A DNA stretch of 64,000 nt from Minisyncoccota bacterium (GTDB lineage: Bacteria > Patescibacteriota > Minisyncoccia > Phycocordibacterales > UBA1006). How positions within the stretch are numbered: position 1 is the first letter of the stretch; every line of letters starts with the position of its first letter. Below the pieces are notes generated by a model. The model searched no databases, was not told the origin of the DNA, and worked only from the letters and a program-made list of their open reading frames with translations. Positions 1,702 to 63,900 of this stretch are shown one piece after another. Where the stretch lies: NCBI GenBank assembly GCA_036405175.1, contig DASWYC010000002.1, positions 603,373-667,372 of the forward strand. Direction: 5' to 3'. The translations under genes and the position numbers were made by a program.

Positions 1702-2127
1702 ATGAAACATGAAGTGCCACAATTTATTGATGTGAAAGATAAAGTAATCGGACCATTTACGTTTGATCAATTTCTGTATTTGTTAGGAGGTGGAGCACTC
1801 GCATATTTGAGTTTTCGTTTTATTATGCAGCCATTTGGATTTTTAGTTGCTGCTGCATTGGTTGGTCTTGCCGCAATGTTGGCGTTTTATAAAGTAAATA
1901 ATCGTCCATTTATTGATTTTCTTGCATCACTCGTCTCATATTACACGCGCGATCGATCATACTCATGGAAAAAACAAGAACAAAAAGCTGATCAAAAGAA
2001 AGTTGAAGTATCCACACCAGTATCTTTAGAACCTCAAACACGGTATGATATTACTACAGTAGCTCAAGGACTCGACGTTCTTGATCGAAGTCACGAATAT
2101 GAGCATCGCAACACAACAGTTTATTGA
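1702..2127 (+). CDS. Small 2-TM membrane protein, T4SS-associated by position (VirB3/PrgI-like role possible)
   Basis: 141 aa with two hydrophobic helices (LYLLGGGALAYLSF..., FLVAAALVGLAAMLAF). It sits between two VirB4-related ORFs. Confidence 0.5.
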   Translation: MKHEVPQFIDVKDKVIGPFTFDQFLYLLGGGALAYLSFRFIMQPFGFLVAAALVGLAAMLAFYKVNNRPFIDFLASLVSYYTRDRSYSWKKQEQKADQKKVEVSTPVSLEPQTRYDITTVAQGLDVLDRSHEYEHRNTTVY

Positions 2128-2731
2128 TATCAAAGAAATTCGCGATGGAGTAGTTATCTTACGCGATGGTTCTATGAAGTCAGTAATCATGACGAGCTCA
2201 ACCAACTTGGCGCTTAAATCTGCTGATGAGCAGCGTGCAACATTAATGAACTTTCAATCATTCCTTAATTCGCTTGAATATTCAACAGAAATTTTGGTGC
2301 AATCACGCAAGCTTGATATTTCTCCATATCTTGAAACGCTACAAGAACAAACTCGTAAAATTACCAATGATCTTTTGCGCATCCAATCACGAGAATACAT
2401 CGATTTTATTCAACTTTTAGGTGAGCGCATGAACCTAGTTACTAAATATTTTTACGTAACAATCTCATATTTTCCTTCATTTTTAACGCAAAATAAGAAG
2501 GGGGTGATTAATAATATTACAAGTGCGCTTACGGGGCCGGGGGATCAGCAGATGTCATACGAGGCATTTCAGGTAGAAAAAGCGCAATTAGACCAAAGAA
2601 CAGCCGTAATCGTGGGTGGTTTGGAGCGTATGGGACTTACTTCAAAGGCCTTAAATACCGAAGAACTCATTGTTTTATATCAAAATGTCTATAATCCTGG
2701 ACAGACCCAAAAAGCAATTTCTCAAAAATAG
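2081..2731 (+). CDS. Standalone VirB4 N-terminal-domain-like protein (216 aa), possibly a remnant or split copy
   Basis: The N-terminus QQFIDIKEIRDGVVILRDGSMKSVIMTSSTNLALKSADEQRATLMNFQSFL matches the characteristic start of Gram-positive-type VirB4/TcpF/Orf16 ATPases. No ATPase domain follows. Overlaps the previous ORF by 47 nt. Confidence 0.5.
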   Translation: MIEVTNMSIATQQFIDIKEIRDGVVILRDGSMKSVIMTSSTNLALKSADEQRATLMNFQSFLNSLEYSTEILVQSRKLDISPYLETLQEQTRKITNDLLRIQSREYIDFIQLLGERMNLVTKYFYVTISYFPSFLTQNKKGVINNITSALTGPGDQQMSYEAFQVEKAQLDQRTAVIVGGLERMGLTSKALNTEELIVLYQNVYNPGQTQKAISQK

Positions 2732-2767: not shown

Positions 2768-2796
2768 TTGACTTTAATATTGGATTATGATATAAT
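2768..2796 (+). promoter_or_regulatory. Sigma70-type promoter TTGACT-N17-TATAAT with extended TG
   Basis: ttgact at 2768..2773, tataat at 2791..2796, tg two nt upstream of the -10. It lies 80 nt upstream of the 2878 ORF. Confidence 0.6.
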
Positions 2797-2877
2797 ATAT
2801 ACAAATTTTTTACAAACAGTGTTCTTGATCCACACAACGGACAATAAGAACTCAAAAAACCTTAAATATATCAAATC

Positions 2878-4515
2878 ATGTTAAGAAAATTCTTTTTGTT
2901 GCTTCTCCCTCTAATGGGGTTGATGGAGCTAATCGCTGTTAAAAGTCTTTTTGCGCAAGCCCCGCTCGGTATAACAAAAAAAGACGGAAAAGATAGATAT
3001 TTGTATGTTGATAGCCCAAAATTCGACAAAGTTGTCGAAGTTGACGGGTTCTACAGCCAAAATGAAATTACCCCCGGAACTTCGCCACAAGACGTAGTTA
3101 AGGGAAATAGCGCTTTGGCTATAGGTAGCGTCCAAGGTCTCATGTGGACATTTCCTGATGGCAAAAAGTTTCCGGTAAACCAAATCCCGTTTAAAAACGA
3201 GATTTCGGCAGGAAGTAGGCCGATGACTCGCACAGTTCTTTTGTTAGATAAGGCCAAAGTTATTTATGTGAAGGAGACAGGTCAACCGCTCTATATAGCT
3301 GACTGCAATCGTTGCACTGCAAATTGTGATGATGAAGCTAAGGCAGTATGGAAAAACAGACCAAACCGTCTTCGCATGGTAGACAATGAAGCCTATTGGC
3401 GAGAGTTTATTGGTTTGGTGACCAGTCAAACACAAGGAGGTCCGTCTGGTGTTGTTACTGATGAAGGTCAGGGTAAGGTTGTTGTTATTCAAAATAATAC
3501 AACACCCCCGCCTACCAATAATCCTACAACCCAACAAACAGGACTGATTACTCAAGCGTCTGGCATGGGTTTGGTTGACTACTTTGCAGCTCTTGAATTG
3601 GCGCGCATTGAGGATGTTAAAAGACTCATGCATGAAAATATCGTCATTGATATGAATGGAAAGAATGCTGGACTTGCAGCACAATATCGTGCACAGGTAC
3701 GTGTCTTTGATGGGGTTGGACAGGCACCACAACAAGGTTCCATGATTACAACTTCTGTTTATGCTCAGCAACAAGGTCAGGGAAGAATGTATAGTGCTGA
3801 AGAAGTACAAAATATTCTTGCTCAACAAAACCAGCAGGCACAGAGAGACGATTATTGGAGGCAGCTTGAGTTTCAAGAAAATAAGAAGGCTCGCAACTGG
3901 GCTATCGGGACATCGATAGTTGGAACTCTTGGGCAACTTTTTATAGGAGGGATGGGTCTTTATCAGACAAATCAATTCTATAAAGCCATGGCTGGAGGAG
4001 TCGGATACAGTGGCTCTTCATCTGGTTATGGGCAAACACCTGCTATCAATATTTACAATAACAATAGTAATAAAAATAGCAACAATAACCCATTTAACTG
4101 GACACCTGCGCCTCCTTCGCAACCAAATACAGGAGGTAAGCCAAACAATCCTACAAGACCTCCATGGGTGAATCAGCATGAAAATTGGATGCCAAATGTA
4201 GGTGGACCTCTTTGGCAAGGAGATCCCTCATACAGACGTCCATGGACAAAATCCTCAGATGGACTTTGGGTTACTCCGGCCAATAACGGTCGAATCGGAT
4301 ACAACGATTTAGGTGAACCAGTAAAAGTAAATTATACGGATCCCGCTGCATATACGTGGCAAAACCCATATAATTCAACAGGTGTTACTCCAATTGGAAG
4401 TAATACCCAGGTTAAATGGGGTCAACCTGATAGCAACGGAAGCTTTTTTATTCCGCCAGTTACTACAACTGGAAATGGTAACTATATTCCACCCAAATCC
4501 AATTGGGGGAATTAA
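2878..4515 (+). CDS. Secreted low-complexity protein, Q/N/P/G/T-rich (545 aa)
   Basis: N-terminal signal peptide MLRKFFLLLLPLMGLMELIAVKSLFAQA. Long prion-like N/Q/P/G stretches follow (NNTTPPPTNNPTTQQTG; NNNSNKNSNNNPFNWTPAPPSQPNTGGKPNNPTRPP). Confidence 0.65.
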   Translation: MLRKFFLLLLPLMGLMELIAVKSLFAQAPLGITKKDGKDRYLYVDSPKFDKVVEVDGFYSQNEITPGTSPQDVVKGNSALAIGSVQGLMWTFPDGKKFPVNQIPFKNEISAGSRPMTRTVLLLDKAKVIYVKETGQPLYIADCNRCTANCDDEAKAVWKNRPNRLRMVDNEAYWREFIGLVTSQTQGGPSGVVTDEGQGKVVVIQNNTTPPPTNNPTTQQTGLITQASGMGLVDYFAALELARIEDVKRLMHENIVIDMNGKNAGLAAQYRAQVRVFDGVGQAPQQGSMITTSVYAQQQGQGRMYSAEEVQNILAQQNQQAQRDDYWRQLEFQENKKARNWAIGTSIVGTLGQLFIGGMGLYQTNQFYKAMAGGVGYSGSSSGYGQTPAINIYNNNSNKNSNNNPFNWTPAPPSQPNTGGKPNNPTRPPWVNQHENWMPNVGGPLWQGDPSYRRPWTKSSDGLWVTPANNGRIGYNDLGEPVKVNYTDPAAYTWQNPYNSTGVTPIGSNTQVKWGQPDSNGSFFIPPVTTTGNGNYIPPKSNWGN

Positions 4516-4545
4516 AAATTAAATTTAGTGTTTTACCATAAAAGG

Positions 4546-4576
4546 GCCATCTCATAGGAGATGGCTTATTTTTTTG
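4546..4576 (+). terminator. Rho-independent terminator
   Basis: gccatctc-atag-gagatggc followed by a T run, 30 nt after the stop at 4515. Confidence 0.7.
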
Positions 4577-4737
4577 TCTAAAAGTAGGGGGTACGCAGCC
4601 TTAGATATAAATATATGTAGCTGAGGCATGTTAAAATCTAACAAGAGACCAGTCGCTTTCCAAAAGTTGAGCGGAAACACCTCAGAAATGGCCAGTAAAA
4701 TAAGTCAAAACTAAACATGAAAACATAATTAAATCAT

Positions 4738-4766
4738 TTGACAAAATTGTCAATATATGATATATT
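4738..4766 (+). promoter_or_regulatory. Promoter TTGACA-N17-TATATT (TG-extended); the -35 lies inside the perfect palindrome ttgacaaaattgtcaa
   Basis: ttgaca 4738..4743, tg 4758..4759, tatatt 4761..4766. The palindrome 4738..4753 is a 7-2-7 inverted repeat overlapping the -35. Confidence 0.55.
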
Positions 4767-4827
4767 TCACCTAGTCATGAAAGTGACTGCTAAATCACAC
4801 AGTTTTATCAACTATAATGAATAATGT

Positions 4828-7800
4828 ATGAAAAAATTTATCTTAGGTTTGGTGTTCGTGGGAATTACCTTTTTGGGAGCCCAACATGCCAACGCACAAG
4901 TTTTTAATACCTATCCTGGAGATTGTCCAACAATCGGAGTAACTACGCTTGCTAATGCAAGTAATGGTTGTCGAGACTCTTCTATTGATGGTGTAAATCC
5001 TGGAGATATCCTTATTGTAGGGGTATATTTTCACAATACTTCACCAATCGATACAAGCGCAATCGTAAGAATGTCAGACCTCCAAGGAGGATCTGGTAAG
5101 TCTGTTCCTATATACGGAACCATTCAGCCAGCAGATGGTGCAGGGGCTGGTGGGCAAGGAATGGTGCATTTTAGTCAGACATCACGTCTTGAATATATGT
5201 ACACTAAAGTGTACTGGAATGGTCGTGATTTTGGTGGCGGTGGTGTTGAAACCGACCGTACCGGACGCGTATTTACCAGTGGAGAACCTCTCTATCTTGT
5301 TCCTGGAATGTGTTCAAATTGTGCCGATAAATTCATCGATCAGGGTGTTGTAAAAGCATATTATCGTGTTATTGGTCTTGATGCTGCCCCAATTGAGGAG
5401 GCTCCACAGTGGAATACTAACGGATATCCGCGTGTTGTATGTGCTGGAAACAACAATGGAACCGTTACGGTAAAAGCTTTTGGAAATGGAAAGCAAGTTC
5501 AATTTAAGAACTACTTTAATGATAATTGGGTAAATGAATCAGGAAATAACGAATATACTTGGTATAACGTTCCAAACGGAACATATAACACCGCAGTTCG
5601 CTTTGCGGGTTCAGGTAATTCACGTGGAGGTTCATTCCAAGTAAATTGTAATGTTAATAATCCAAACCCTGATCCAGATCCAGGAAATCCACCAAGCGGA
5701 AATTTTGAAAACTTTAAGGTAAAAAATAATACAACCTCTGATGGAATTGTGATTCGTTACACCAGCCCAAGCGGAGATAAGACTTTTGGTCTTAGTGGAA
5801 GTTCTGCTGGCGATGGAAGTCATATTAGTCCATGTATTACTGGTATCAAATCATCAGTAGTAAAAATCAGTGGAGTATCTTGGGCTTCATTTAGTATTAT
5901 TTCGTGTGATGGCGGTCCTTCAAATCCTAATCCAGATCCAGAGCCTCAACAAGGAACTCCTGAGTGGAATACCAATGGGTATCCTCGTGTAATTTGTAAT
6001 AACAATGGAACTGCAAACGTTACTATCAAAGCATATGGAAACGGAAAGCAGGTTCAGTTTAAGCATTACAGCAACGGTTCTTGGGTAACCGAGACAGGAA
6101 ATAATGAATATACATTCTATAATGTTCCTTCTAAATCGGGAGTATATACCACAGGAGTTCGTTTTGTTGGTTCAACTAATGAACGTCAAGGATTCTTTGC
6201 AGTAAGCTGTAACGATCAAGGGCCTACTAATCCCGAGCAAGCTCCTGACTGGAATGTAAATGGATATCCACGTGTGGTATGTAATACTAACGGAACTGCA
6301 ACAGTAACCGTTAAGGCATATGGAAATGGAAAACAAGTACAATTCCGTAACTACAACAACAATAACTGGGTAACTGAAACCGGAAACAACGAATATACCT
6401 GGTATAACGTTCCTTCTCGATCACAGGCATACGCAACTGCTGTTCGCTTTGTTGGTCAAACTGCTGAGCGCGCGGGATACTTTGCCGTAAATTGTAATGA
6501 TGAAGGTCCAACCAATCCAACTAACCAGTGTGCTATTTCTGATGCAAACTGGGATACTGCCGGTTATCCTCGCGTAGAATTCCTTTCTGCTACTTCAAAT
6601 GATGTAAGTGTAATTGTAAAAGCAAAGAATACTGGCGGAAAAACCGTTGAATTCTTTAACGCAGCAACACAGCGCTATGAAGTTGCTAACATGAGTGATA
6701 ATCGTATTATCTGGTCAAATATTATTGCTACCTGGCCAATCGCTGGGCAAAATGGAAACAAGAAATTGTACAGCACCTGGTTGCGATTCCAAGGATGTAC
6801 TGAGCGTGTACAAGGATGGTTTGAGGTAACTCCTCGCGAAGTTAGTGATAACACCACTAAACCAAGCGTAGAGACCCGTAGCCCAGAAGATGTATCACGT
6901 AACTCAGCAACTATTGTTGGAAACTTGCTTTCAAAGGGAGGTCTTTCAACTCAAACATACTTGTATTGGGGACGTCGTCAGGGAAGCACCTGTACCGCAT
7001 CGGATCTTATTTATAAGACTCCAGAAACCACCAACGCTAATACTGGAACCTTTAGTCGCTACATCTCAGGACTCTCAGCTGATACCTGGTATTGTTACCA
7101 AGCCGCAGCATCAAATAATAAGGGAGAAGTGAAGGGTGACATTCGTTCATTCAAAACAACTACTGATTACACACCAAGTGATGTAATTCGTATTGAAACT
7201 ACGTCAGCAACTAACATCTCTTCAGAATACGCAACACTTCGTGGAGAAGTAGTTGATACTGGAGATGCTAATACTGTTCGTACATGGTTTGAATTTGGAA
7301 ACAGCTCTAGTACCGTATCAAACGGAAATGGAACTCGCTACTCTGTATCAGGGGACTTCTATCGTGGAAATTCAATTTCACGTAGCGTAAGTGGACTTCA
7401 GCGAGGAACTCGCTACTACTTCCGTGCGTGTGGAGAAAACACTGTAGGTCAACAAGACTGTGGAGATGTTCTCAGCTTTGTTACTGAAGGAAATAACTCA
7501 ACTATTCAAGTTGATACCGAACAAGAATCAGATGTAAGCTATACTGCTGCTCGTATGCATGGACGTGTACGCGAAACTGGACGAAGCACTCGTCTTCGTA
7601 CTTGGTTTGAGTACAGCACCTCAGAAAACAATGTATACAACGGAAATGGATCACGTATCTATCTTGATAACAACTATGGATACTCACAAGGTCAGTCATT
7701 CTCACAAATGGTAACCGGTTTGCAAAGTAATACTCGTTACTTCTACCGCGCTTGTGGAGATAATACCGAAGGGGAGCGTGACTGTGGTGATGTTGAATCA

Positions 7801-8934
7801 TTTGTAACGCTTTCAAATAACTACAATCCAGTTCAACCAGAACGCCTTGGAACATTGGTTACTACACTTGCTGCAAGTTCAGTACGTCAGTACAATGCTC
7901 GCTTGAATGGATCATTCAATGCTCGTGATTGTTCTTCTGAATTGTGGTTTGAATACGGACGCACCAGCTCTCTTGGAGAAGTGGTAAATATTGGAACTCG
8001 TTCAGCATATGATCGTGGAGTGGTTTCTGCTGATATCTCAGGATTGAAGCCAAACACCACCTACTACTTCCGCATTGTTGGAAGTGGCTGTGGATCAATT
8101 GTTCGTGGAGCTACCAAGACCTTTAAGACTCCAAAAACTACCACAACCGTAGTAAATCCTCCTGTCAAACAAAAACCAGTAGTAAAAGTTATTCAAGTTA
8201 AGGAAGACGTAAATGTTGCTGCAGAAAGCATCTGTTCTCCTGATCTTGATCTTAAGATTGATAACAATCGTGATACTATTGGAAACCGTGAAGAATTTGA
8301 TTACGTAATTACCTATCAAAATCTTACGCAAACATACGTGCTCCGCGATATTGAAATGCAGGTAGAAATTCCTCCACAGCTTGAATTTGTAAGCTCATCA
8401 CGAGGAACCTACAACAAGGCATCTCACTCTCTCTTTATTTCACGCATGGATCTTAATCCATCACAGCGTGAGACATTCACCGTAACGGTGCGTGCTAAGA
8501 AGGGATTGGTAGAAGGTGATCTTATTGTTGCATCAGCAACTGCATCATTCATCAGTCCAACTACCGGAATCAACGATAGTTCAACCGACTTTGATTCTGA
8601 TGAATACTTGAATTCTCGTAATTCTAATGGATCATCAGACAATAGTAGTGATCGTTCACTATTTGGAAGTTCAGATAATGGTGGAAATGGATTCCTTCCA
8701 TCAAGTCTTGTTGGATGGTTGTCACTTATCTTCTTGGTATTCCTCTTCATTGCAGCACTTCGCTGGCTCTGGTTTGGAAAGAAGGGAAATGAATACAACT
8801 ATGCCTACGGACCATACGGAGTTCCTCCAACCAACAATGTGTATGGCGCACCGGTACAACCTGTAGCACCCGTTGCTCCGGTTCAACCAGTTCAGCCAAT
8901 CTACGTTCCATTTAATCCAAATCAACCAAGATAA
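4828..8934 (+). CDS. Giant cell-surface protein (1368 aa): signal peptide, 3-4 tandem ~95-aa modules, ~5 Fn3-like modules, DUF11-like repeat domain, C-terminal TM anchor and Pro-rich tail
   Basis: Signal peptide MKKFILGLVFVGITFLGAQHANA. WNTNGYPRV...GNGKQVQF...GNNEYT.YNVP...VRF.G...CN is repeated three times with PNPDPDP linkers. Repeated W(F/Y)E(F/Y)G...YY(F)R..G.N..G..DCGDV.SF.T modules follow. TM helix GWLSLIFLVFLFIAAL, then an APVQPVAPVAPVQPVQP tail. Confidence 0.8.
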   Translation: MKKFILGLVFVGITFLGAQHANAQVFNTYPGDCPTIGVTTLANASNGCRDSSIDGVNPGDILIVGVYFHNTSPIDTSAIVRMSDLQGGSGKSVPIYGTIQPADGAGAGGQGMVHFSQTSRLEYMYTKVYWNGRDFGGGGVETDRTGRVFTSGEPLYLVPGMCSNCADKFIDQGVVKAYYRVIGLDAAPIEEAPQWNTNGYPRVVCAGNNNGTVTVKAFGNGKQVQFKNYFNDNWVNESGNNEYTWYNVPNGTYNTAVRFAGSGNSRGGSFQVNCNVNNPNPDPDPGNPPSGNFENFKVKNNTTSDGIVIRYTSPSGDKTFGLSGSSAGDGSHISPCITGIKSSVVKISGVSWASFSIISCDGGPSNPNPDPEPQQGTPEWNTNGYPRVICNNNGTANVTIKAYGNGKQVQFKHYSNGSWVTETGNNEYTFYNVPSKSGVYTTGVRFVGSTNERQGFFAVSCNDQGPTNPEQAPDWNVNGYPRVVCNTNGTATVTVKAYGNGKQVQFRNYNNNNWVTETGNNEYTWYNVPSRSQAYATAVRFVGQTAERAGYFAVNCNDEGPTNPTNQCAISDANWDTAGYPRVEFLSATSNDVSVIVKAKNTGGKTVEFFNAATQRYEVANMSDNRIIWSNIIATWPIAGQNGNKKLYSTWLRFQGCTERVQGWFEVTPREVSDNTTKPSVETRSPEDVSRNSATIVGNLLSKGGLSTQTYLYWGRRQGSTCTASDLIYKTPETTNANTGTFSRYISGLSADTWYCYQAAASNNKGEVKGDIRSFKTTTDYTPSDVIRIETTSATNISSEYATLRGEVVDTGDANTVRTWFEFGNSSSTVSNGNGTRYSVSGDFYRGNSISRSVSGLQRGTRYYFRACGENTVGQQDCGDVLSFVTEGNNSTIQVDTEQESDVSYTAARMHGRVRETGRSTRLRTWFEYSTSENNVYNGNGSRIYLDNNYGYSQGQSFSQMVTGLQSNTRYFYRACGDNTEGERDCGDVESFVTLSNNYNPVQPERLGTLVTTLAASSVRQYNARLNGSFNARDCSSELWFEYGRTSSLGEVVNIGTRSAYDRGVVSADISGLKPNTTYYFRIVGSGCGSIVRGATKTFKTPKTTTTVVNPPVKQKPVVKVIQVKEDVNVAAESICSPDLDLKIDNNRDTIGNREEFDYVITYQNLTQTYVLRDIEMQVEIPPQLEFVSSSRGTYNKASHSLFISRMDLNPSQRETFTVTVRAKKGLVEGDLIVASATASFISPTTGINDSSTDFDSDEYLNSRNSNGSSDNSSDRSLFGSSDNGGNGFLPSSLVGWLSLIFLVFLFIAALRWLWFGKKGNEYNYAYGPYGVPPTNNVYGAPVQPVAPVAPVQPVQPIYVPFNPNQPR
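5401..6528 (+). repeat. Intragenic tandem DNA repeats (~285 nt, approximate copies at 5401..5690, 5955..6240, 6241..6528)
   Basis: The near-identical protein modules imply a nucleotide repeat. Copies 2 and 3 are directly adjacent. Confidence 0.6.
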
Positions 8935-8959
8935 TTAAATAGAACTAAATAAGAGAAAA

Positions 8960-8990
8960 GAGGCGCGACCTTCGGTCGCGCCTCTTTTCA
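8960..8990 (+). terminator. Rho-independent terminator
   Basis: gaggcgcgacc-ttcg-ggtcgcgcctc followed by ttttca. Confidence 0.8.
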
Positions 8991-9153: not shown

Positions 9154-9597
9154 ATGTTAACGATTACTACTAACAATTCTGGTGAAGCAGCGAAGTATTT
9201 TTTTGACACTATTCAGCATCAAGTTGAAACTGATGGGAAAGTAATTATTGCTTTAAAGGGTGATTTGGGGGCAGGAAAAACCACATTGGTGCAGGAGTTT
9301 TGCAAAATGTGTGGCGTACAAGATGTAGTAACGAGTCCAACCTTTCCCATCATGAATGTGTATGAAGGAGAAATTAATGAACAGAAAACAGTGATTCATC
9401 ACTTTGACTGGTATCGCTTGGATTCTATGGCTGATCTAGGAGTGATTAATTTGCCGATGATTTTATCTCAATTAGGAATATTTTTTATCGAATGGCCAGA
9501 AAAACTACCGGAAGTATTAGGCGATTACGAACACTATGTACTTTCAATAGATATTGAAGGAGAGAGTAGAATTTATAATCTTGAGAAACACAATTAA
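9154..9597 (+). CDS. tsaE: tRNA threonylcarbamoyladenosine biosynthesis protein TsaE (YjeE)
   Basis: P-loop GDLGAGKTTLVQ, then SPTFPIMNVYEG and HHFDWYRL, all typical of TsaE. Confidence 0.8.
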   Translation: MLTITTNNSGEAAKYFFDTIQHQVETDGKVIIALKGDLGAGKTTLVQEFCKMCGVQDVVTSPTFPIMNVYEGEINEQKTVIHHFDWYRLDSMADLGVINLPMILSQLGIFFIEWPEKLPEVLGDYEHYVLSIDIEGESRIYNLEKHN

Positions 9598-9758: not shown

Positions 9759-12110
9759 ATGAAACCAGCCCCTATTGTACTTATTGATGCCTACGCGTTG
9801 CTTCATCGCGGATATCACGCATTTCCTCATCTTTCTACGCCAGAAGGCTTTCCAACGGGAGCACTCTATGGATTTACGGCCATGATCGTGCGGATCATTG
9901 AAAAATACGATCCAAAAGACGTTTTGGTGTGTTTTGATATGCCGGAGGAGACGTTTCGCCATGTTGCGTATGAGCAGTATAAGGCGGGCCGTCTAGAGAC
10001 CGATGAGTCTCTTAAGGTTCAGCTTCAAGAAGCACATAATCTTGCGCGTGCGTTCGGTTTTTTAGTCTACGAGAGCCCTTCTTTTGAAGCGGACGATTTA
10101 CTTGGAACACTCGCTGAGCAGCTCAAAAAATCGTATGACGGACAGATTATTATTGCCACCGGTGATAAAGATGCTCTTCAATTAATTGATGGCGAAAAGG
10201 TGGTGGTGTACACCTACAAGAAAACCACCAAAGATACTATTTTATATACCGAAGACGAAGTGCTCAAGGACTTTGGCTATACACCGACACAAGTTCCCGA
10301 TTATAAAGGTCTTGCAGGAGATTCATCAGATAATATTCCCGGCATCAAGGGAATTGGTGAAAAAACTGCCTGCAAGTTGTTGCAAAAATTTGGGAGCATT
10401 GAGCACATGTATGAAGTGCTTGAATCAGGCGATGAGGAAGCATTTACCAGTATTGGGGTAAAGGGTGTTTCTCTTCAAAAGGTAAAAGAAGGTAAAGAAG
10501 ATGCGCTCTTTTCAAAAGTAATTGCAACCATTCGCAGAGATGCACCGGTGAGTTACTCGGAAACGGTAACGTGGAAAGAGCGTGCAAAACCTCAGGAAGT
10601 ATTTAGCTATCTTGGAAAATACTACTTTAAATCAATGCTTAATCAATTTAGAACCTATTTTGGCGAACAGTCTGCTGCAGCAGAAAGTTACGATATTGAT
10701 CCGCTGCTCTTTAAAAAAGCTCAGGTTGCTTATTGGCTTTTGGATTCTCAGCAAACCAATCCAAATATTTTAGACATGCAGTTTTTGACCCACAAGCAAA
10801 CTGTCGAAGAAATTCTTGAAGTGCTTGAACAAAAATTAAAAGATCAAAATTTGTTTGAAGTCTACATAGAAATTGAAGTGCCACTTATTCCAATTTTGGC
10901 AGCGATGAAAGAGCGAGGAATCATGATTGATAGAAAACATTTTGAAGATCTTAAAGTTGAATTTGAAACCAAGATTGCAGAATTAGAGCAGAAAATTCAA
11001 AGTTATGCCGAAGGAAAGATTATCAACATTCGTTCACCAAAACAGGTAGGGGAATTGTTGTTTGATATTCTCAAATTACCTGCTAAATATGTTAAAAAAA
11101 CAGCCACCGGTGAGCGTTCAACGAATGAAAAGGAGCTTTTAAAGATGAAAGACGTGCATCCGGTAATTGATTTATTGCTCGAGTATCGCTTTGCGGAAAA
11201 AATGCGCTCAACGTATATTGAAACGTTGCCGCAAACTGCTGATGAAAACGCCGTGATTCATAGTGATCTTATCCAAACAGGAGCATCAACAGGGCGTTTT
11301 GCATCGGCAAACCCAAATCTTCAAAATATCCCAATTCGTAATGACTCGGCAAAACTTATCCGTGGTGGATTTATTGCACGTCCTGGCTATACGTTTTTAG
11401 CAGCAGACTATTCTCAGATTGAGTTGCGCATTGCGGCTATTTTGTCGGGTGATTCTAACTTAATTGAAATCTTTAAACGCGGAGAAGATGTTCATGCGGG
11501 AGTTGCATCGCGTGTGTTTAATAAGCCGCTTAATGAAGTGACCCTTGATGAGCGTCGCAAAGCAAAGGTGATTAACTTTGGAATTGTATATGGAATGGGT
11601 GTAAGTGCGCTGATGGAAAATCTTAAAACTACTCGTGCGGAGGCTCAGCTTTTCTATGATCAATATAAAAGTACGTTTCCGGTTTTGATGAGTTTTATGG
11701 AGGGAACCAAAAGAAGTGCCGAGGAAACAGGGTATACACTTACATTCTTTGGACGCCGCTGCAACTTTAAAGATCTTAAATCAAAAATGCCGTATGTAAA
11801 AGCAATGGCGGAGCGCATGGCGGCTAACGCACCAATTCAAGGAACGGCAACCGCTGATCTTATTAAATTGGCGCTTAGATTTGTATGGGAAGAAATCACT
11901 CAAAAGTATGGGGAAGATATTTGTATGCCACTTCTGCAGATTCATGATGAATTGTTGTTTGAGGTACAGCTTGGCAAAGAAGATGAGATTGGAAAGAAGA
12001 TCAAGGAAGTGATGGAAAGTGTTTTTGAAAAGTCGTATAAAAAGTACAAGTCTGTGGTGCCAATTTTGGTTGATGTACATACGGGAACCTCGTGGGATAA
12101 GCTTAAATAA
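9759..12110 (+). CDS. polA: DNA polymerase I (short form, 783 aa)
   Basis: 5'-3' exonuclease N-terminus (LIDAYALLHRGYHAF...). Pol A motifs RRKAKVINFGIVYGMG and QIHDELLFE. The length implies a reduced or absent 3'-5' exonuclease domain. Confidence 0.85.
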   Translation: MKPAPIVLIDAYALLHRGYHAFPHLSTPEGFPTGALYGFTAMIVRIIEKYDPKDVLVCFDMPEETFRHVAYEQYKAGRLETDESLKVQLQEAHNLARAFGFLVYESPSFEADDLLGTLAEQLKKSYDGQIIIATGDKDALQLIDGEKVVVYTYKKTTKDTILYTEDEVLKDFGYTPTQVPDYKGLAGDSSDNIPGIKGIGEKTACKLLQKFGSIEHMYEVLESGDEEAFTSIGVKGVSLQKVKEGKEDALFSKVIATIRRDAPVSYSETVTWKERAKPQEVFSYLGKYYFKSMLNQFRTYFGEQSAAAESYDIDPLLFKKAQVAYWLLDSQQTNPNILDMQFLTHKQTVEEILEVLEQKLKDQNLFEVYIEIEVPLIPILAAMKERGIMIDRKHFEDLKVEFETKIAELEQKIQSYAEGKIINIRSPKQVGELLFDILKLPAKYVKKTATGERSTNEKELLKMKDVHPVIDLLLEYRFAEKMRSTYIETLPQTADENAVIHSDLIQTGASTGRFASANPNLQNIPIRNDSAKLIRGGFIARPGYTFLAADYSQIELRIAAILSGDSNLIEIFKRGEDVHAGVASRVFNKPLNEVTLDERRKAKVINFGIVYGMGVSALMENLKTTRAEAQLFYDQYKSTFPVLMSFMEGTKRSAEETGYTLTFFGRRCNFKDLKSKMPYVKAMAERMAANAPIQGTATADLIKLALRFVWEEITQKYGEDICMPLLQIHDELLFEVQLGKEDEIGKKIKEVMESVFEKSYKKYKSVVPILVDVHTGTSWDKLK

Positions 12111-15535: not shown

Positions 15536-16765
15536 ATGGAAAACAAAACTTTTCTTGAAAAACTAGGCTTCTTTTTGTGGCCTATCGCTGCCAATCTGGG
15601 TGTATTTATGTATCTCCAAAAGACAAGTCTTATCCCAGCTGTTCAATTCATTGTAAGTGGGGTAATAGGTATTCTTTTGGTATTAATTTCAATTCGTCGT
15701 AGAAATGATGAGTTGAATGAAAGTATAGAGTCAAGTCGAGCGGTTACTATCGCTGTTTTTGCCACCATGCTTTTATGCATTCTGGGGAGGCAATTTGTAG
15801 CCTATAAACCCATTAACTTATTAGGCGAGCTTGCTTTTCTGGGAGTTATCCTAATAGGCATTTGTTTCATTTTTGTCGCCTCAGACGAATCTGTCGAAAA
15901 AGACTATGGGATATCTCATTACCTCAGTAAATCTGCAGCAATATTTGCTGTTGTGGGACTAATTCACGAAGCATATTGCTACTTCGGAACTCAATTTATA
16001 TGGGTGCCATTGATTTGTTTTTTCTGTTGCATGGTTCTTTTAAAGGGAGATGAAATCATCAATGATATTCTTAGCGACCATGCTCCAAAAATGATGACAA
16101 TGCTAATTGCTATTGGTGTAGTTAGTACACTCTATCAGTTTTGGTTTACCAGGCTATTCTCAGGTCCAATGTTATGGGAGGCTTTACTTGGTATGGCCAC
16201 CTCTATCATAATAGTTGGCATATTTCTGTTCATTGCTCGAAACATTCGAAGAAATGAGGAGAAAAAAAGAAAAGATAGTCTAAATACTCGTAAGCAGGAA
16301 GAAGATGAAAAGGATAGAGGGTTAAAGGAAAAAAAGAAGCAGGAAGATGTCGCTAAGTACTATGCTGAACTAAAAGAGGAATCTCCGAGTTGGGACAGTA
16401 TTCTATTTATTGCAGCCAATGTTCAGTGGAGAAGTGACAGTGATGCATACCAGGTTCTGGTTGAAGCAATTAGGAAAAAGAGTTTATCTGTTTTAATTAC
16501 TTCATCACAAGTAAAAGAACAAATGTTCTGGAAGGGTAATTCATTGGAAGATGCCCTGAAATTCGTTAATGATCTTTTTGACTTTTCATCTGATGATGAG
16601 ACTCTAAAGATGCTCATAGAAAAGTATAAAGAATTTAATTCTTTTATTGAAAGTCACAAGGACCTGAAAGGCTATGAAGCCTTACAGAAAAACTCAGGCA
16701 ATCTTTGCTCGTCAATTGTGAGTATCGCCAAGAAAGATGTTAAAAAAGAAGTTGTTGAAGTTTAA
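15536..16765 (+). CDS. Hypothetical polytopic membrane protein with a K/E-rich cytoplasmic C-terminal domain (409 aa)
   Basis: About six hydrophobic helices in the N-terminal 230 aa, then a highly charged RRNEEKKRKD...KEKKKQED linker and a soluble domain. Confidence 0.55.
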   Translation: MENKTFLEKLGFFLWPIAANLGVFMYLQKTSLIPAVQFIVSGVIGILLVLISIRRRNDELNESIESSRAVTIAVFATMLLCILGRQFVAYKPINLLGELAFLGVILIGICFIFVASDESVEKDYGISHYLSKSAAIFAVVGLIHEAYCYFGTQFIWVPLICFFCCMVLLKGDEIINDILSDHAPKMMTMLIAIGVVSTLYQFWFTRLFSGPMLWEALLGMATSIIIVGIFLFIARNIRRNEEKKRKDSLNTRKQEEDEKDRGLKEKKKQEDVAKYYAELKEESPSWDSILFIAANVQWRSDSDAYQVLVEAIRKKSLSVLITSSQVKEQMFWKGNSLEDALKFVNDLFDFSSDDETLKMLIEKYKEFNSFIESHKDLKGYEALQKNSGNLCSSIVSIAKKDVKKEVVEV

Positions 16766-16786
16766 TGTGAATTTATATTATTTGGA

Positions 16787-16817
16787 ATAAGAGAAGCTAT
16801 ACTTCTCTTATTTTTTG
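16787..16817 (+). terminator. Rho-independent terminator abutting a tRNA
   Basis: ataagagaag-ctatac-cttctcttat followed by tttttt. The next base begins the minus-strand tRNA-Arg. Confidence 0.7.
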
Positions 16818-16889
16818 TGCCCACGGGCGGAATTGAACCACCAATAACTCCTTAGGACGGAGCAGTTATATCCGTTTAACTACAGGGGC
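16818..16889 (-). tRNA. tRNA-Arg (anticodon CCT)
   Basis: Reverse complement folds as acceptor gcccctg/cgtgggc (one C-U mismatch), D-arm gtta-aacggata-taac, anticodon stem gctcc/ggagt with loop gtcctaa, T-arm ggtgg-ttcaatt-ccgcc. Confidence 0.7.
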
Positions 16890-16984
16890 AGTAAAGTGAG
16901 TATAGCAGAAACATCTCTGGCATCAACACGGTTTTTCACTGTACGCAAGAGAGGTGAATTTACTATGAACGTATCCATAAAGAA

Positions 16985-17575
16985 TCACCTCATGTTTTTA
17001 GCAAGGTTCTTCATTCCTTCACGCATAACCAACGAAAGCGTCATTGAATCATCAATAGACATATTGGTGAGCACTTCTTTAACCAAAGCTTCTTCATACC
17101 CAAGTGACACCAATGCTTCAAACGCCTCATGATAAAGCGGATTAGTAACGGTGTTGGTGATAGCTTCTTGGTGATCTTCGGCAAATGAGTAGAGCTCAAT
17201 AATTGTTTTTTCTGCAGTCTTCTTACCGATGCCAGGTGTCTTGGCGAGCATGGCTGCATCTTTACCAATAAGTGCGCGCAGTAATCCTGAAACTCCCAAG
17301 TTAGACAAGATTGAAAGTGCGGATTTGGGTCCAAGACCAGAAACACTCATGAGTTTTTTAAAAACAGTTCGCTCAAAGCCATCAATAAATCCATAGAGTT
17401 CATGAGCATCATCTTTTATAACAAGGTGGGTATATAAATATATGTTTGAGGGAATAGTCGAAAGAGCGGTTTCTTTGGTGCAGAATACGCCGTAGGTAAG
17501 GCCTGATGGGGTCTCAATGGATATTTTCGAGGTAAAATCGGTATCAATAGCGATTCCAGCAATGCGTTCTATCAT
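16985..17575 (-). CDS. ruvA: Holliday junction DNA helicase RuvA
   Basis: MIERIAGI... N-terminus. Two HhH motifs (LMSVSGLGPKSALSIL; LAKTPGIGKKTAEKTIIEL). Confidence 0.85.
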   Translation of the reverse strand: MIERIAGIAIDTDFTSKISIETPSGLTYGVFCTKETALSTIPSNIYLYTHLVIKDDAHELYGFIDGFERTVFKKLMSVSGLGPKSALSILSNLGVSGLLRALIGKDAAMLAKTPGIGKKTAEKTIIELYSFAEDHQEAITNTVTNPLYHEAFEALVSLGYEEALVKEVLTNMSIDDSMTLSLVMREGMKNLAKNMR

Positions 17576-63675: not shown

Positions 63676-63900
63676 ATGTTCTGGCCACAAACATTTTTTG
63701 AATGGATCGTTGTTGCCGCGATCGTGTTTTTTCTCATTCAAGCTTTTCGTATATTTAAAAAAGATCATGAAGAGGAAGACATTTTTGAGCCGTTATGGCA
63801 TGTGAATAAACGAGCTCAAGAGGAAATAAAAAACTCGCCAAATCTTTTGCAGAAAATTATCCGCAGCTGGATTCAGGGGAAAGATAGAAAAAAGAGATAA
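63676..63900 (+). CDS. Hypothetical small membrane protein (74 aa)
   Basis: One N-terminal TM helix (WIVVAAIVFFLIQAF) and a charged tail. Confidence 0.4.
   Translation: MFWPQTFFEWIVVAAIVFFLIQAFRIFKKDHEEEDIFEPLWHVNKRAQEEIKNSPNLLQKIIRSWIQGKDRKKR

Follow-up and report, generated by a model that had tools for sequence, protein, structure and literature searches.

What do two consecutive genes for a pair of exported, surface-type proteins do for a bacterium of a reduced-genome lineage? The question is raised by a locus in a 64,000-nucleotide (nt) stretch of DNA from a Minisyncoccota bacterium (contig DASWYC010000002.1, positions 603,373 to 667,372 of the forward strand), hereafter the window. The first gene encodes a protein of 545 amino acids (aa), here called the partner, and the second a modular protein of 1368 aa, here called the large protein; a preliminary description of the window had given the coordinates of both + strand open reading frames (ORFs) exactly. 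Our leading explanation, held at a confidence just short of even, is that the two genes constitute a conserved cell-surface module of one subclade of Paceibacteria, composed of a fibril and its membrane partner, and that this module makes contact with a variable target, likely a host or partner cell.

The large protein, an identical sequence of which is already on record at NCBI from a Candidatus Paceibacterota metagenome-assembled genome, is built from a series of distinct domains (Table 1). Read by eye from the sequence, its N-terminus resembles a Sec-type signal peptide (MKKFILGLVFVGITFLGAQHANA and then Q), and the same holds for the partner (MLRKFFLLLLPLMGLMELIAVKSLFAQA and then P), in agreement with the signal peptides that the preliminary description had assigned to both proteins. 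That description had overlooked the distinct N-terminal domain of about 167 aa that comes next, the tip, which turned out to define the family to which the protein belongs and for which a Pfam scan of individual segments finds nothing. Farther along, PF16656 matches three of the Fn3-like stretches (51.6 bits, cut-off 30) and PF16655 also passes its cut-off (41.4 bits, cut-off 30), with PF00041 reaching 21.6 bits, under its cut-off of 25; the Fn3-like modules had thus been recognized correctly in kind, and there are four of them, not about five. This domain type recurs among family members and is repeated 14 times in the protein P0004. The single DUF11 domain, also foreseen, is detected when aa 1120-1270 are scanned alone (PF01345, 32.7 bits, cut-off 24.6, E 1e-7) and is missing from the list of a whole-protein scan (E<=0.1). 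Hydropathy analysis revealed a single strong transmembrane (TM) segment at aa 1288-1318, followed by KK and a tail of 50 aa, which bears out the C-terminal anchor and Pro/Val/Gln-rich tail described earlier. With Fn3-like and DUF11 domains present and no catalytic domain found, the domain searches place these modules in no enzymatic family. The GC content along the two-gene locus is about 40% and unremarkable. The organism belongs to the Patescibacteria and has a small genome, as had been guessed.

Between the tip and the Fn3-like domains, the preliminary description had seen three near-identical modules joined by PNPDPDP linkers, a fourth diverged module, and tandem DNA repeats that would make the gene prone to copy-number variation. 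We found that the three modules in question, A1, A2, and A3, are 61-73% identical in protein sequence (A1/A3 66%, A1/A2 61%, A2/A3 73%), that their DNA copies are 71-75% identical with a longest exact run of 14 nt between any two, and that Tandem Repeats Finder reports no array in the large gene. Moreover, an unrelated module of 86 aa, module B, sits between A1 and A2, so the A modules are not strictly tandem. The PNPDPDP linkers do exist, but only around module B: a 21-nt direct repeat (family D5, copies 90% identical) encodes one at 5663 and one at 5921, and GPTNP forms the junctions A2-A3 and A3-A4 instead. The related locus L005 contains the same number of modules as the window. Given the module identities and the 14-nt maximum run, the picture of a near-identical, copy-number-prone tandem is overstated for the allele in the window. 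The fourth module was described accurately: A4 is 29-33% identical to A1-A3 and 83% identical to its ortholog in L005. In the segment scan with Pfam, A1 gave matches to Big_3_5, Y_Y_Y, and Fn3_arc that are all sub-threshold, and module B gave no match.

To these sequence comparisons we added structural models of two domains, computed with AlphaFold2 (AF2). The tip, modeled from a 19-sequence alignment, is predicted to be an all-β sandwich (predicted local distance difference test score, pLDDT, 88.5; predicted template modeling score 0.85); its alignment derives from a word-indexed search with the tip alignment that yielded 16 proteins, mostly fragments. Module A3, modeled from 12 sequences, is predicted to be a seven-stranded β-sandwich (pLDDT 90.8). 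Foldseek searches of the PDB with the tip returned nothing at E<=1e-3, the best match being complement C5/C4 macroglobulin domains at a template modeling score of about 0.3, and a search of viral folds (BFVD) returned nothing significant. For A3, the nearest folds in the PDB are ordinary Fn3 and Ig domains (template modeling scores 0.50-0.56, E>=0.03), with none at E<=1e-3. A sequence search of the PDB found no relative for either protein. Aligned with hhalign to see whether the tip might be a diverged DUF11, the tip profile and the DUF11 profile of the family match with a probability of 54.5% and E 1.2e-4 over only 35 columns, which hold a PGD...Y.N motif. Together, the models and domain matches support the view of the large protein as a surface protein of several domains, non-enzymatic and anchored in the membrane, with recognizable parts that are all predicted β-sandwiches.

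How widely such a protein occurs was addressed with two kinds of search. A word-indexed search returned two orthologs, P0002 (75% identical, 1393 aa) and P0003 (50%, 1283 aa), and an exhaustive HMMER search with a profile of aa 1-678 against 1.84 billion representative proteins returned 98 proteins at E<=1e-3, nearly all of which match the tip only. Since just 98 of 1.84 billion representatives were matched, the family spans one subclade and not all Paceibacteria; one member carries the UniRef name DUF11 domain-containing protein of Candidatus Vogelbacteria. In the same exhaustive search, the A modules had no detectable relatives, and module B zero matches, beyond the small clade of the window. 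Full-length family members are typically arranged as signal peptide, tip, a variable set of Ig-like repeats with a Cys pair, one to six Fn3-like domains, DUF11, and a conserved C-terminal element, with lengths from 469 to 1728 aa and widely differing domain numbers. The C-terminal element approximates LGxxxFGxGFFPxTL[LI]GWLLL and leads into a hydrophobic helix, behind which come R/K residues and then a short tail rich in P and Y; the motif [FL][FWL]Px[TS]L[LIV][GE]W[LI] with a TM helix and R/K residues is found at the C-terminus of 32 family proteins. All five elements of the family, namely signal peptide, tip, Fn3-like domains, DUF11, and the C-terminal motif with TM segment and basic residues, are present in the large protein, whose version of the motif reads FLPSSLVGWL, with no T-G, and has the 50-aa tail behind its helix. 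It is the one family member within the window.

Two side observations concern this C-terminal region. The last residues of the large protein, IYVPFNPNQPR (8899..8931), have counterparts at the ends of other members, such as EYVAYRPMPKQ, GYRPYRPTPVQ, and EYIPYRPTPKV (P0033, P0044, P0045, P0087, and L122), in which terminal motifs like YRPMPKQ and YRPTPVQ can be made out; the extreme end of the tail may serve to dock a partner in the cytoplasm. Separately, a 74-aa ORF far from the locus (63676..63900, + strand), which starts with MFWPQTFFEWIVVAAIVFFLIQAFRIFKK, matches the anchor profile of the family in iterated hidden Markov model (HMM) searches (E 2e-8) and has no Pfam match; it may encode an anchor-like peptide that stands alone, be what is left of a gene, or match by chance.

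We then considered the partner, which had been described as a secreted protein dominated by low-complexity, prion-like segments. Its layout consists of the signal-peptide-like stretch (aa 1-27), an ectodomain (28-200), a Q-rich segment (200-340), a Gly-rich hydrophobic segment (341-362), and a tail (363-545). The first 200 residues are of ordinary composition and include three Cys, aa 200-345 contain 14.5% Q, and only aa 370-545 are strongly N/P/G-rich (16% N, 14% P, 13% G, with many Trp). N and Q together make up 16% of the protein, and the equivalent tails of relatives are G/P/S-rich, not Q/N-rich. The Gly-rich segment (nt 3898-3963), NWAIGTSIVGTLGQLFIGGMGLY, is moderately hydrophobic. On these grounds of composition and layout, low complexity does not dominate the protein, which is probably better described as a putative bitopic membrane partner with an ordinary ectodomain than as a secreted prion-like protein. 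No match to it was found in Pfam, NCBIfam, or the PDB. The genes at the same position in L003 and L005 encode proteins that are 24-26% identical to it in the N-domain (pairwise BLASTP, E 2e-4 and 2e-3), and iterated HMM searches with this N-domain gave no match in any locus fetched. Nearly all upstream genes across the family nevertheless share one layout, in which an MKK-type signal peptide precedes a domain of about 140 aa, in many cases with a Cys motif, and then come a linker, a hydrophobic segment rich in Gly, and a tail rich in G and P; genes of equal layout occupy the partner slot in metagenome loci.

The position of the pair was compared across two samples, one of 80 genome loci retrieved through VirB4, an ATPase of type IV secretion systems (T4SSs), and one of 46 metagenome loci retrieved through the tip domain, which represent the closer subgroup of tip sequences and include 25 loci with a full-length family member. 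In the window, the partner gene and the large gene are followed by tsaE (PF02367) and polA, and most of the 25 metagenome loci have this same order. TsaE and/or PolA are encoded within three genes downstream of the family member in 23 of these 25 loci, and a + strand gene lies upstream of it in all 22 loci that have an upstream gene to inspect. The divergent genes upstream commonly encode a PilB/GspE-type ATPase (PF00437, 388 bits, with an MshEN domain) and RuvB (L089-L131; for instance L105 5535..8604). This synteny identifies the conserved unit as the partner, the surface protein, and tsaE-polA.

Within this fixed frame, the pair is a mosaic of strongly and weakly diverged parts. When the window is compared with L005, the flanking genes are 80-90% identical in DNA, and no DNA identity is detectable across 2796-5401, a stretch that covers the whole partner gene and the tip. 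At the protein level, identity to L005 rises along the large protein from 30-40% in the tip through about 70% in the A and B modules and about 80% in the Fn3-like domains to 98-100% in aa 1000-1368. Rates of nonsynonymous (dN) and synonymous (dS) substitution also differ by region: aa 191-1000 have a dN of 0.15-0.26 and a dS of 0.8-1.6, and aa 1001-1255 a dN of 0.003 and a dS of 0.21, compared with a dN of 0.064 and a dS of 1.07 for PolA and a dN of 0.088 and a dS of 1.18 for TsaE. The pattern is a general one: averaged over 17 genomes, normalized similarity comes to 0.08 in the partner, 0.33 in the tip, 0.34 in the DUF11 region, and 0.60 in PolA. A dS of 0.21 at the anchor against about 1.1 in the flanks, together with a tip and partner gene devoid of DNA similarity, shows that the locus is a recombining mosaic. 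By these measures, a very divergent allele has taken the place of the distal cassette formed by the partner gene and the tip, evolution of the stalk outpaces that of the housekeeping genes, and the anchor region has most likely been shared recently by recombination. Module content changes over time as well. Module B has a copy in L005 and none in the ortholog P0003 (L003), and in the latter protein A1 and A3 are 80% identical and share an exact DNA run of 132 nt (L003 10601..11458), which indicates recent intragenic conversion or duplication.

We propose the following model. The large protein would be exported through Sec and then held by its C-terminal FLPxSLxGWL TM anchor, with the short Pro-rich tail in the cytoplasm. 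It would form a rod of about 11 β-sandwich domains, arranged from the membrane outward as DUF11, the four Fn3-like domains, A4, A3, A2, B, A1, and the tip; at about 4 nm per domain, such a rod might reach several tens of nanometers. The partner would be a small bitopic membrane protein, in which a Q-rich segment separates the ectodomain from a Gly-rich TM segment and a tail of low complexity, and would most likely be situated at the base of the fibril or work with it, in physical association with the large protein. Between close relatives, the distal cassette would be swapped for divergent alleles, and the membrane-proximal part would be kept and homogenized by recombination. Fast distal turnover on a conserved anchor is a pattern typical of an outer end that contacts a varying target, and the outer end of this fibril would accordingly touch something variable, most likely the surface of the host or partner cell that epibionts with reduced genomes need. 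An epibiotic lifestyle is documented for cultivated Patescibacteria, and it is this lifestyle, along with like proposals for Ig, Fn3, and DUF11 proteins in the Candidate Phyla Radiation (CPR), that makes adhesion or contact with a host cell a plausible function. The data directly establish the domain layout, the existence of the family with its gene order, the mosaic divergence, and the lack of catalytic domains; the topology in the membrane, the association of the two proteins, and adhesion as their role are inferred.

Several observations weigh against this model. The place beside housekeeping genes and the apparent single copy per locus fit a core envelope component such as a surface layer (S-layer) equally well. 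After correction for PolA distance, the correlation between similarity of the tip and similarity of the partner is only weak (partial r 0.23), and we accordingly make no claim of tip-partner co-evolution. The hydrophobic segment at aa 341-362 of the partner is under the TM threshold applied. Iterated HMM searches leave the occupants of the partner slot split among at least five sequence families with no link between them, and their common descent is unproven. Lastly, fold searches of the PDB and BFVD gave the tip no structural neighbor of known ligand.

The most serious competitor of the fibril model, which we consider unlikely but well within reason, is that the pair builds an S-layer-like coat in which the large protein is the main envelope protein, the partner is its membrane base, and phage predation drives variation of the exposed end. 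The family occupies the same spot beside tsaE-polA even in genomes whose PolA proteins are only about 43% identical, which suggests a core component, and a solitary family member in 64 kb would be in keeping with that status. Each gene also has a near-consensus promoter-like site and its own terminator-like hairpin (Table 1); these calls are consensus matches only, and such sites are not enriched in the region overall. A variable exposed part on a conserved anchor is seen in S-layer gene cassettes too, as in Clostridioides difficile slpA, and some partner variants have, by eye, long coiled-coil-like segments, as does the archaeal S-layer protein SlaB. However, Pfam and NCBIfam gave no match to SLH or to any other known S-layer domain, the large protein has a TM anchor of its own, unlike SlaA, and a size range of 469-1728 aa with varied domain numbers does not sit easily with a lattice of fixed geometry. 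Nor does a family with 98 matches in the exhaustive search extend to all Paceibacteria. If the pair does form an envelope coat, it would offer a first molecular handle on the CPR cell surface.

We regard as a little less probable than a coat a more specific proposal, in which the partner gene and the tip make up an exchangeable specificity cassette that chooses the host cell or the phage and is swapped by recombination onto a retained stalk and anchor, and in which, separately, the FFPxTLxGWL motif, TM helix, and basic residues would be an undescribed Patescibacteria sorting or anchoring signal. To our knowledge, hosts and host-recognition mechanisms are unknown for most Paceibacteria. The locus is a concrete and easily located candidate marker of host or phage specificity, with a fixed position and a distal part that outpaces the genome. 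Alleles of the tip and partner could be typed in metagenomes and compared with co-occurring hosts, and both the tip and the partner ectodomain are small enough for expression and assay.

The genes directly upstream of the pair suggest a further role, which we consider improbable, as an accessory of the adjacent T4SS, with the large protein as a mating or contact adhesin like PrgB/PrgC of pCF10 and the 545-aa protein as a channel or stalk component, for example a VirB8 analog. The pair comes straight after VirB4-PrgI-TrsD, in the same orientation, both in the window and in the relatives L003 and L005. Monoderm T4SSs depend on surface adhesins, and a 2025 survey of T4SS clusters found none in Patescibacteria (PMC12102498). 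Standard Paceibacteria clusters also contain large secreted proteins, some with Fn3-like domains of the same type, and a secreted protein rich in low complexity. Against this stand the samples themselves. None of the 25 metagenome loci, viewed up to 10 kb on each side, has VirB4, PrgI, or TrsD near the family member, whose neighbors there are pilB-like, ruvB, tsaE, and polA, and none of the 80 VirB4-centered loci contains a tip, DUF11, or anchor family member outside the clade of the window. Since no T4SS genes were detected in the 25 family loci, the adjacency of VirB4-PrgI-TrsD is specific to the clade of the window, in which the T4SS genes hold the spot taken elsewhere by pilB-like and ruvB genes; the arrangement is a clade-specific rearrangement, and the order of the T4SS genes among themselves has also been rearranged in this clade, as comparison with about 70 other loci shows. 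In addition, each gene of the pair has promoter-like and terminator-like sites of its own, and neither protein matches PrgB, PrgC, VirB8, or any other T4SS family in Pfam or NCBIfam. A general T4SS-accessory role was rejected, as the 80 VirB4 loci and 46 tip-centered loci show no conserved linkage. Least probable by far is an enzymatic role for the large protein, for example as an extracellular phosphatase, which PF16656 and PF16655 scores above cut-off might suggest: we rejected this reading because the two models, Pur_ac_phosph_N and PhoD_N, describe the non-catalytic, Fn3-like N-domains of such enzymes and the matches cover these alone, no segment contains a metallophosphatase, PhoD catalytic, or other catalytic family (Pfam, NCBIfam), and all modeled parts are β-sandwiches.

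Table 1. Features of the two-gene locus and its surroundings, in window coordinates
Feature	Position	Strand	Basis or remark
VirB4-like ATPase (context)	..1510	+	NF045971, 331.5 bits; runs off the left edge of the window
PrgI/VirB3-like (context)	1702..2127	+	PF12666, 33.3 bits
TrsD/VirB4-N-like (context)	2081..2731	+	NF045975/PF26593
Promoter-like site 5' of partner gene	2768..2796	+	TTGACT-17-TATAAT, 11/12 matches, extended -10 TG
Partner gene, 545 aa	2878..4515	+	ORF and composition
Terminator-like hairpin 3' of partner gene	4544..4567	+	10-bp stem, 5 GC pairs, then T-run
Promoter-like site 5' of large gene	4738..4766	+	TTGACA-17-TATATT, 11/12 matches, extended -10 TG
Large surface protein gene, 1368 aa	4828..8934	+	ORF; NCBI name hypothetical protein VGE63_03345, Candidatus Paceibacterota
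N-terminal tip domain, aa 24-190 (~167 aa)	4897..5397	+	Family-defining, hypervariable; AF2 model
Module A1, aa 191-290, Ig/Fn3-like β-sandwich with Cys pair	5398..5697	+	Alignment of A modules
Module B, aa 291-376 (86 aa), unrelated to A	5698..5955	+	Bounded by PNPDPDP-coding repeats
Modules A2 (aa 377-470) and A3 (aa 471-565)	5956..6522	+	A-type modules; A3 modeled
Module A4, aa 566-680, diverged A-type	6523..6867	+	Sequence comparison with A1-A3
Four Fn3-like domains, aa 678-778, 785-889, 893-997, 1011-1101	6859..8130	+	Pfam and iterated HMM searches
DUF11 domain, aa 1131-1255, membrane-proximal	8218..8592	+	PF01345
Conserved anchor, aa 1281-1318: G-rich lead-in GNGFLPSSLVGWL, TM helix, basic residues	8668..8781	+	Hydropathy, recurring motif
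Predicted cytoplasmic Pro/Val/Gln/Tyr-rich tail, aa 1319-1368	8782..8931	+	Read from sequence; ends in IYVPFNPNQPR
Terminator-like GC-rich hairpin 3' of large gene	8955..8989	.	16-bp stem, 10 GC pairs; reported on - strand, palindrome also 3' of + gene
TsaE, downstream of large gene	9154..9597		PF02367, 101.7 bits
PolA, downstream of TsaE	9759..12110		

The T4SS clusters sampled in this comparison have features of their own. The usual order in Paceibacteria, as seen in the VirB4 loci, is secreted surface proteins, VirB6-like, PrgI, TrsD, and VirB4, after which come a secreted protein (about 325 aa), a surface-TM-hydrolase fusion, and one more protein (about 450 aa). The core genes are thus ordered PrgI, TrsD, VirB4 in about 70 other Paceibacteria loci (L007-L086), as opposed to VirB4, PrgI, TrsD-like in the window, L003, and L005; the genes for the hydrolase and the 325-aa secreted protein are inverted and located upstream of VirB4 in L003. 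The PrgI-like and TrsD-like ORFs of the window overlap by 47 nt in different frames, and the corresponding gene calls in L003 and L005 overlap by about 29 nt. About 1-8.5 kb 5' of PrgI in L007-L086, upstream of a polytopic VirB6-like gene, lie genes for a large secreted protein of 650-1400 aa and a low-complexity-rich secreted protein of 270-540 aa, and some of these large proteins share the Fn3-like domain type of the window protein. This secreted pair is a candidate for T4SS surface components that are not named in the published survey (PMC12102498). Finally, two adjoining surface-2TM-hydrolase genes in L066 (12535..14283 and 15688..17535) have an identical long center and differing N-terminal surface and C-terminal hydrolase parts, a further case of cassette-like variation in a Paceibacteria surface gene.

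Comparison with known systems places the pair among several better-characterized surface structures. In Sulfolobales, SlaA is a large, β-rich outer protein, and the smaller SlaB is anchored in the membrane and combines β domains with a coiled coil and a TM segment. The window locus resembles them in encoding a large β-rich outer protein and a smaller membrane-anchored protein in two adjacent genes, a likeness of layout; unlike in that system, the large protein has its own TM anchor and the partner gene comes first. PrgB and PrgC of the enterococcal pCF10 T4SS are likewise encoded beside an MPF_FATA-type VirB4/PrgI cluster, and the pair has a comparable position in the window, but no sequence or domain relationship was detected and the T4SS linkage of the family is not conserved. 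With the sortase-anchored Ig-fold adhesins of Gram-positive bacteria (microbial surface components recognizing adhesive matrix molecules), the large protein shares a monoderm-type envelope, a signal peptide, a distal region, a β-sandwich stalk, and a C-terminal motif followed by a helix and basic residues. It differs from them in having FLPSSL/FFPxTL and then GW in place of LPXTG, in the 20-50 aa cytoplasmic tail that it and many other family members carry, and in a tip that lacks a known adhesin fold. The sortase motif TLxTC occurs in no ORF of the window, and no NCBIfam sorting-signal model matches the large protein.

With respect to its turnover, the locus is most similar to surface cassettes of other bacteria. 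The C. difficile slpA gene is an S-layer cassette in which the exposed part varies and the anchor is conserved. In Borrelia, loci for host-interacting lipoproteins are hypervariable surface cassettes kept by recombination (PMC11389397). Like these, the window locus exchanges its exposed part between lineages, conserves its anchor and flanks, and displays a mosaic of dS along its length, in another group of organisms and in other protein families.

The closest parallels in domain content are large surface proteins with Ig, Fn3, and DUF11 domains that CPR bacteria are described as carrying and that have been proposed to mediate host attachment (PMC8080830, PMC10936435), among them the giant DUF11/Fn3/Ig-domain surface proteins of Vampirococcus lugosii (PMC8080830) and the highly expressed secreted Ig-like/PKD proteins of Paceibacteria (PMC10936435). 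They share with the large protein an origin in reduced-genome epibiont lineages, the same kinds of modules, membrane association, and a proposed role in host recognition or attachment, and the idea of repeat-rich large surface proteins as putative CPR adhesins is already familiar. In limited searching of the literature, no description of this family or its anchor motif turned up, and three aspects may be new: a family defined by the tip and the FFPxTLxGWL anchor, a partner gene and a fixed position, and a quantified cassette-like turnover. Whereas the published accounts give domains only, the present locus adds to the same domain content a tip, an FFPxTLxGWL anchor, a partner, a position beside tsaE-polA, and a measured mosaic turnover.

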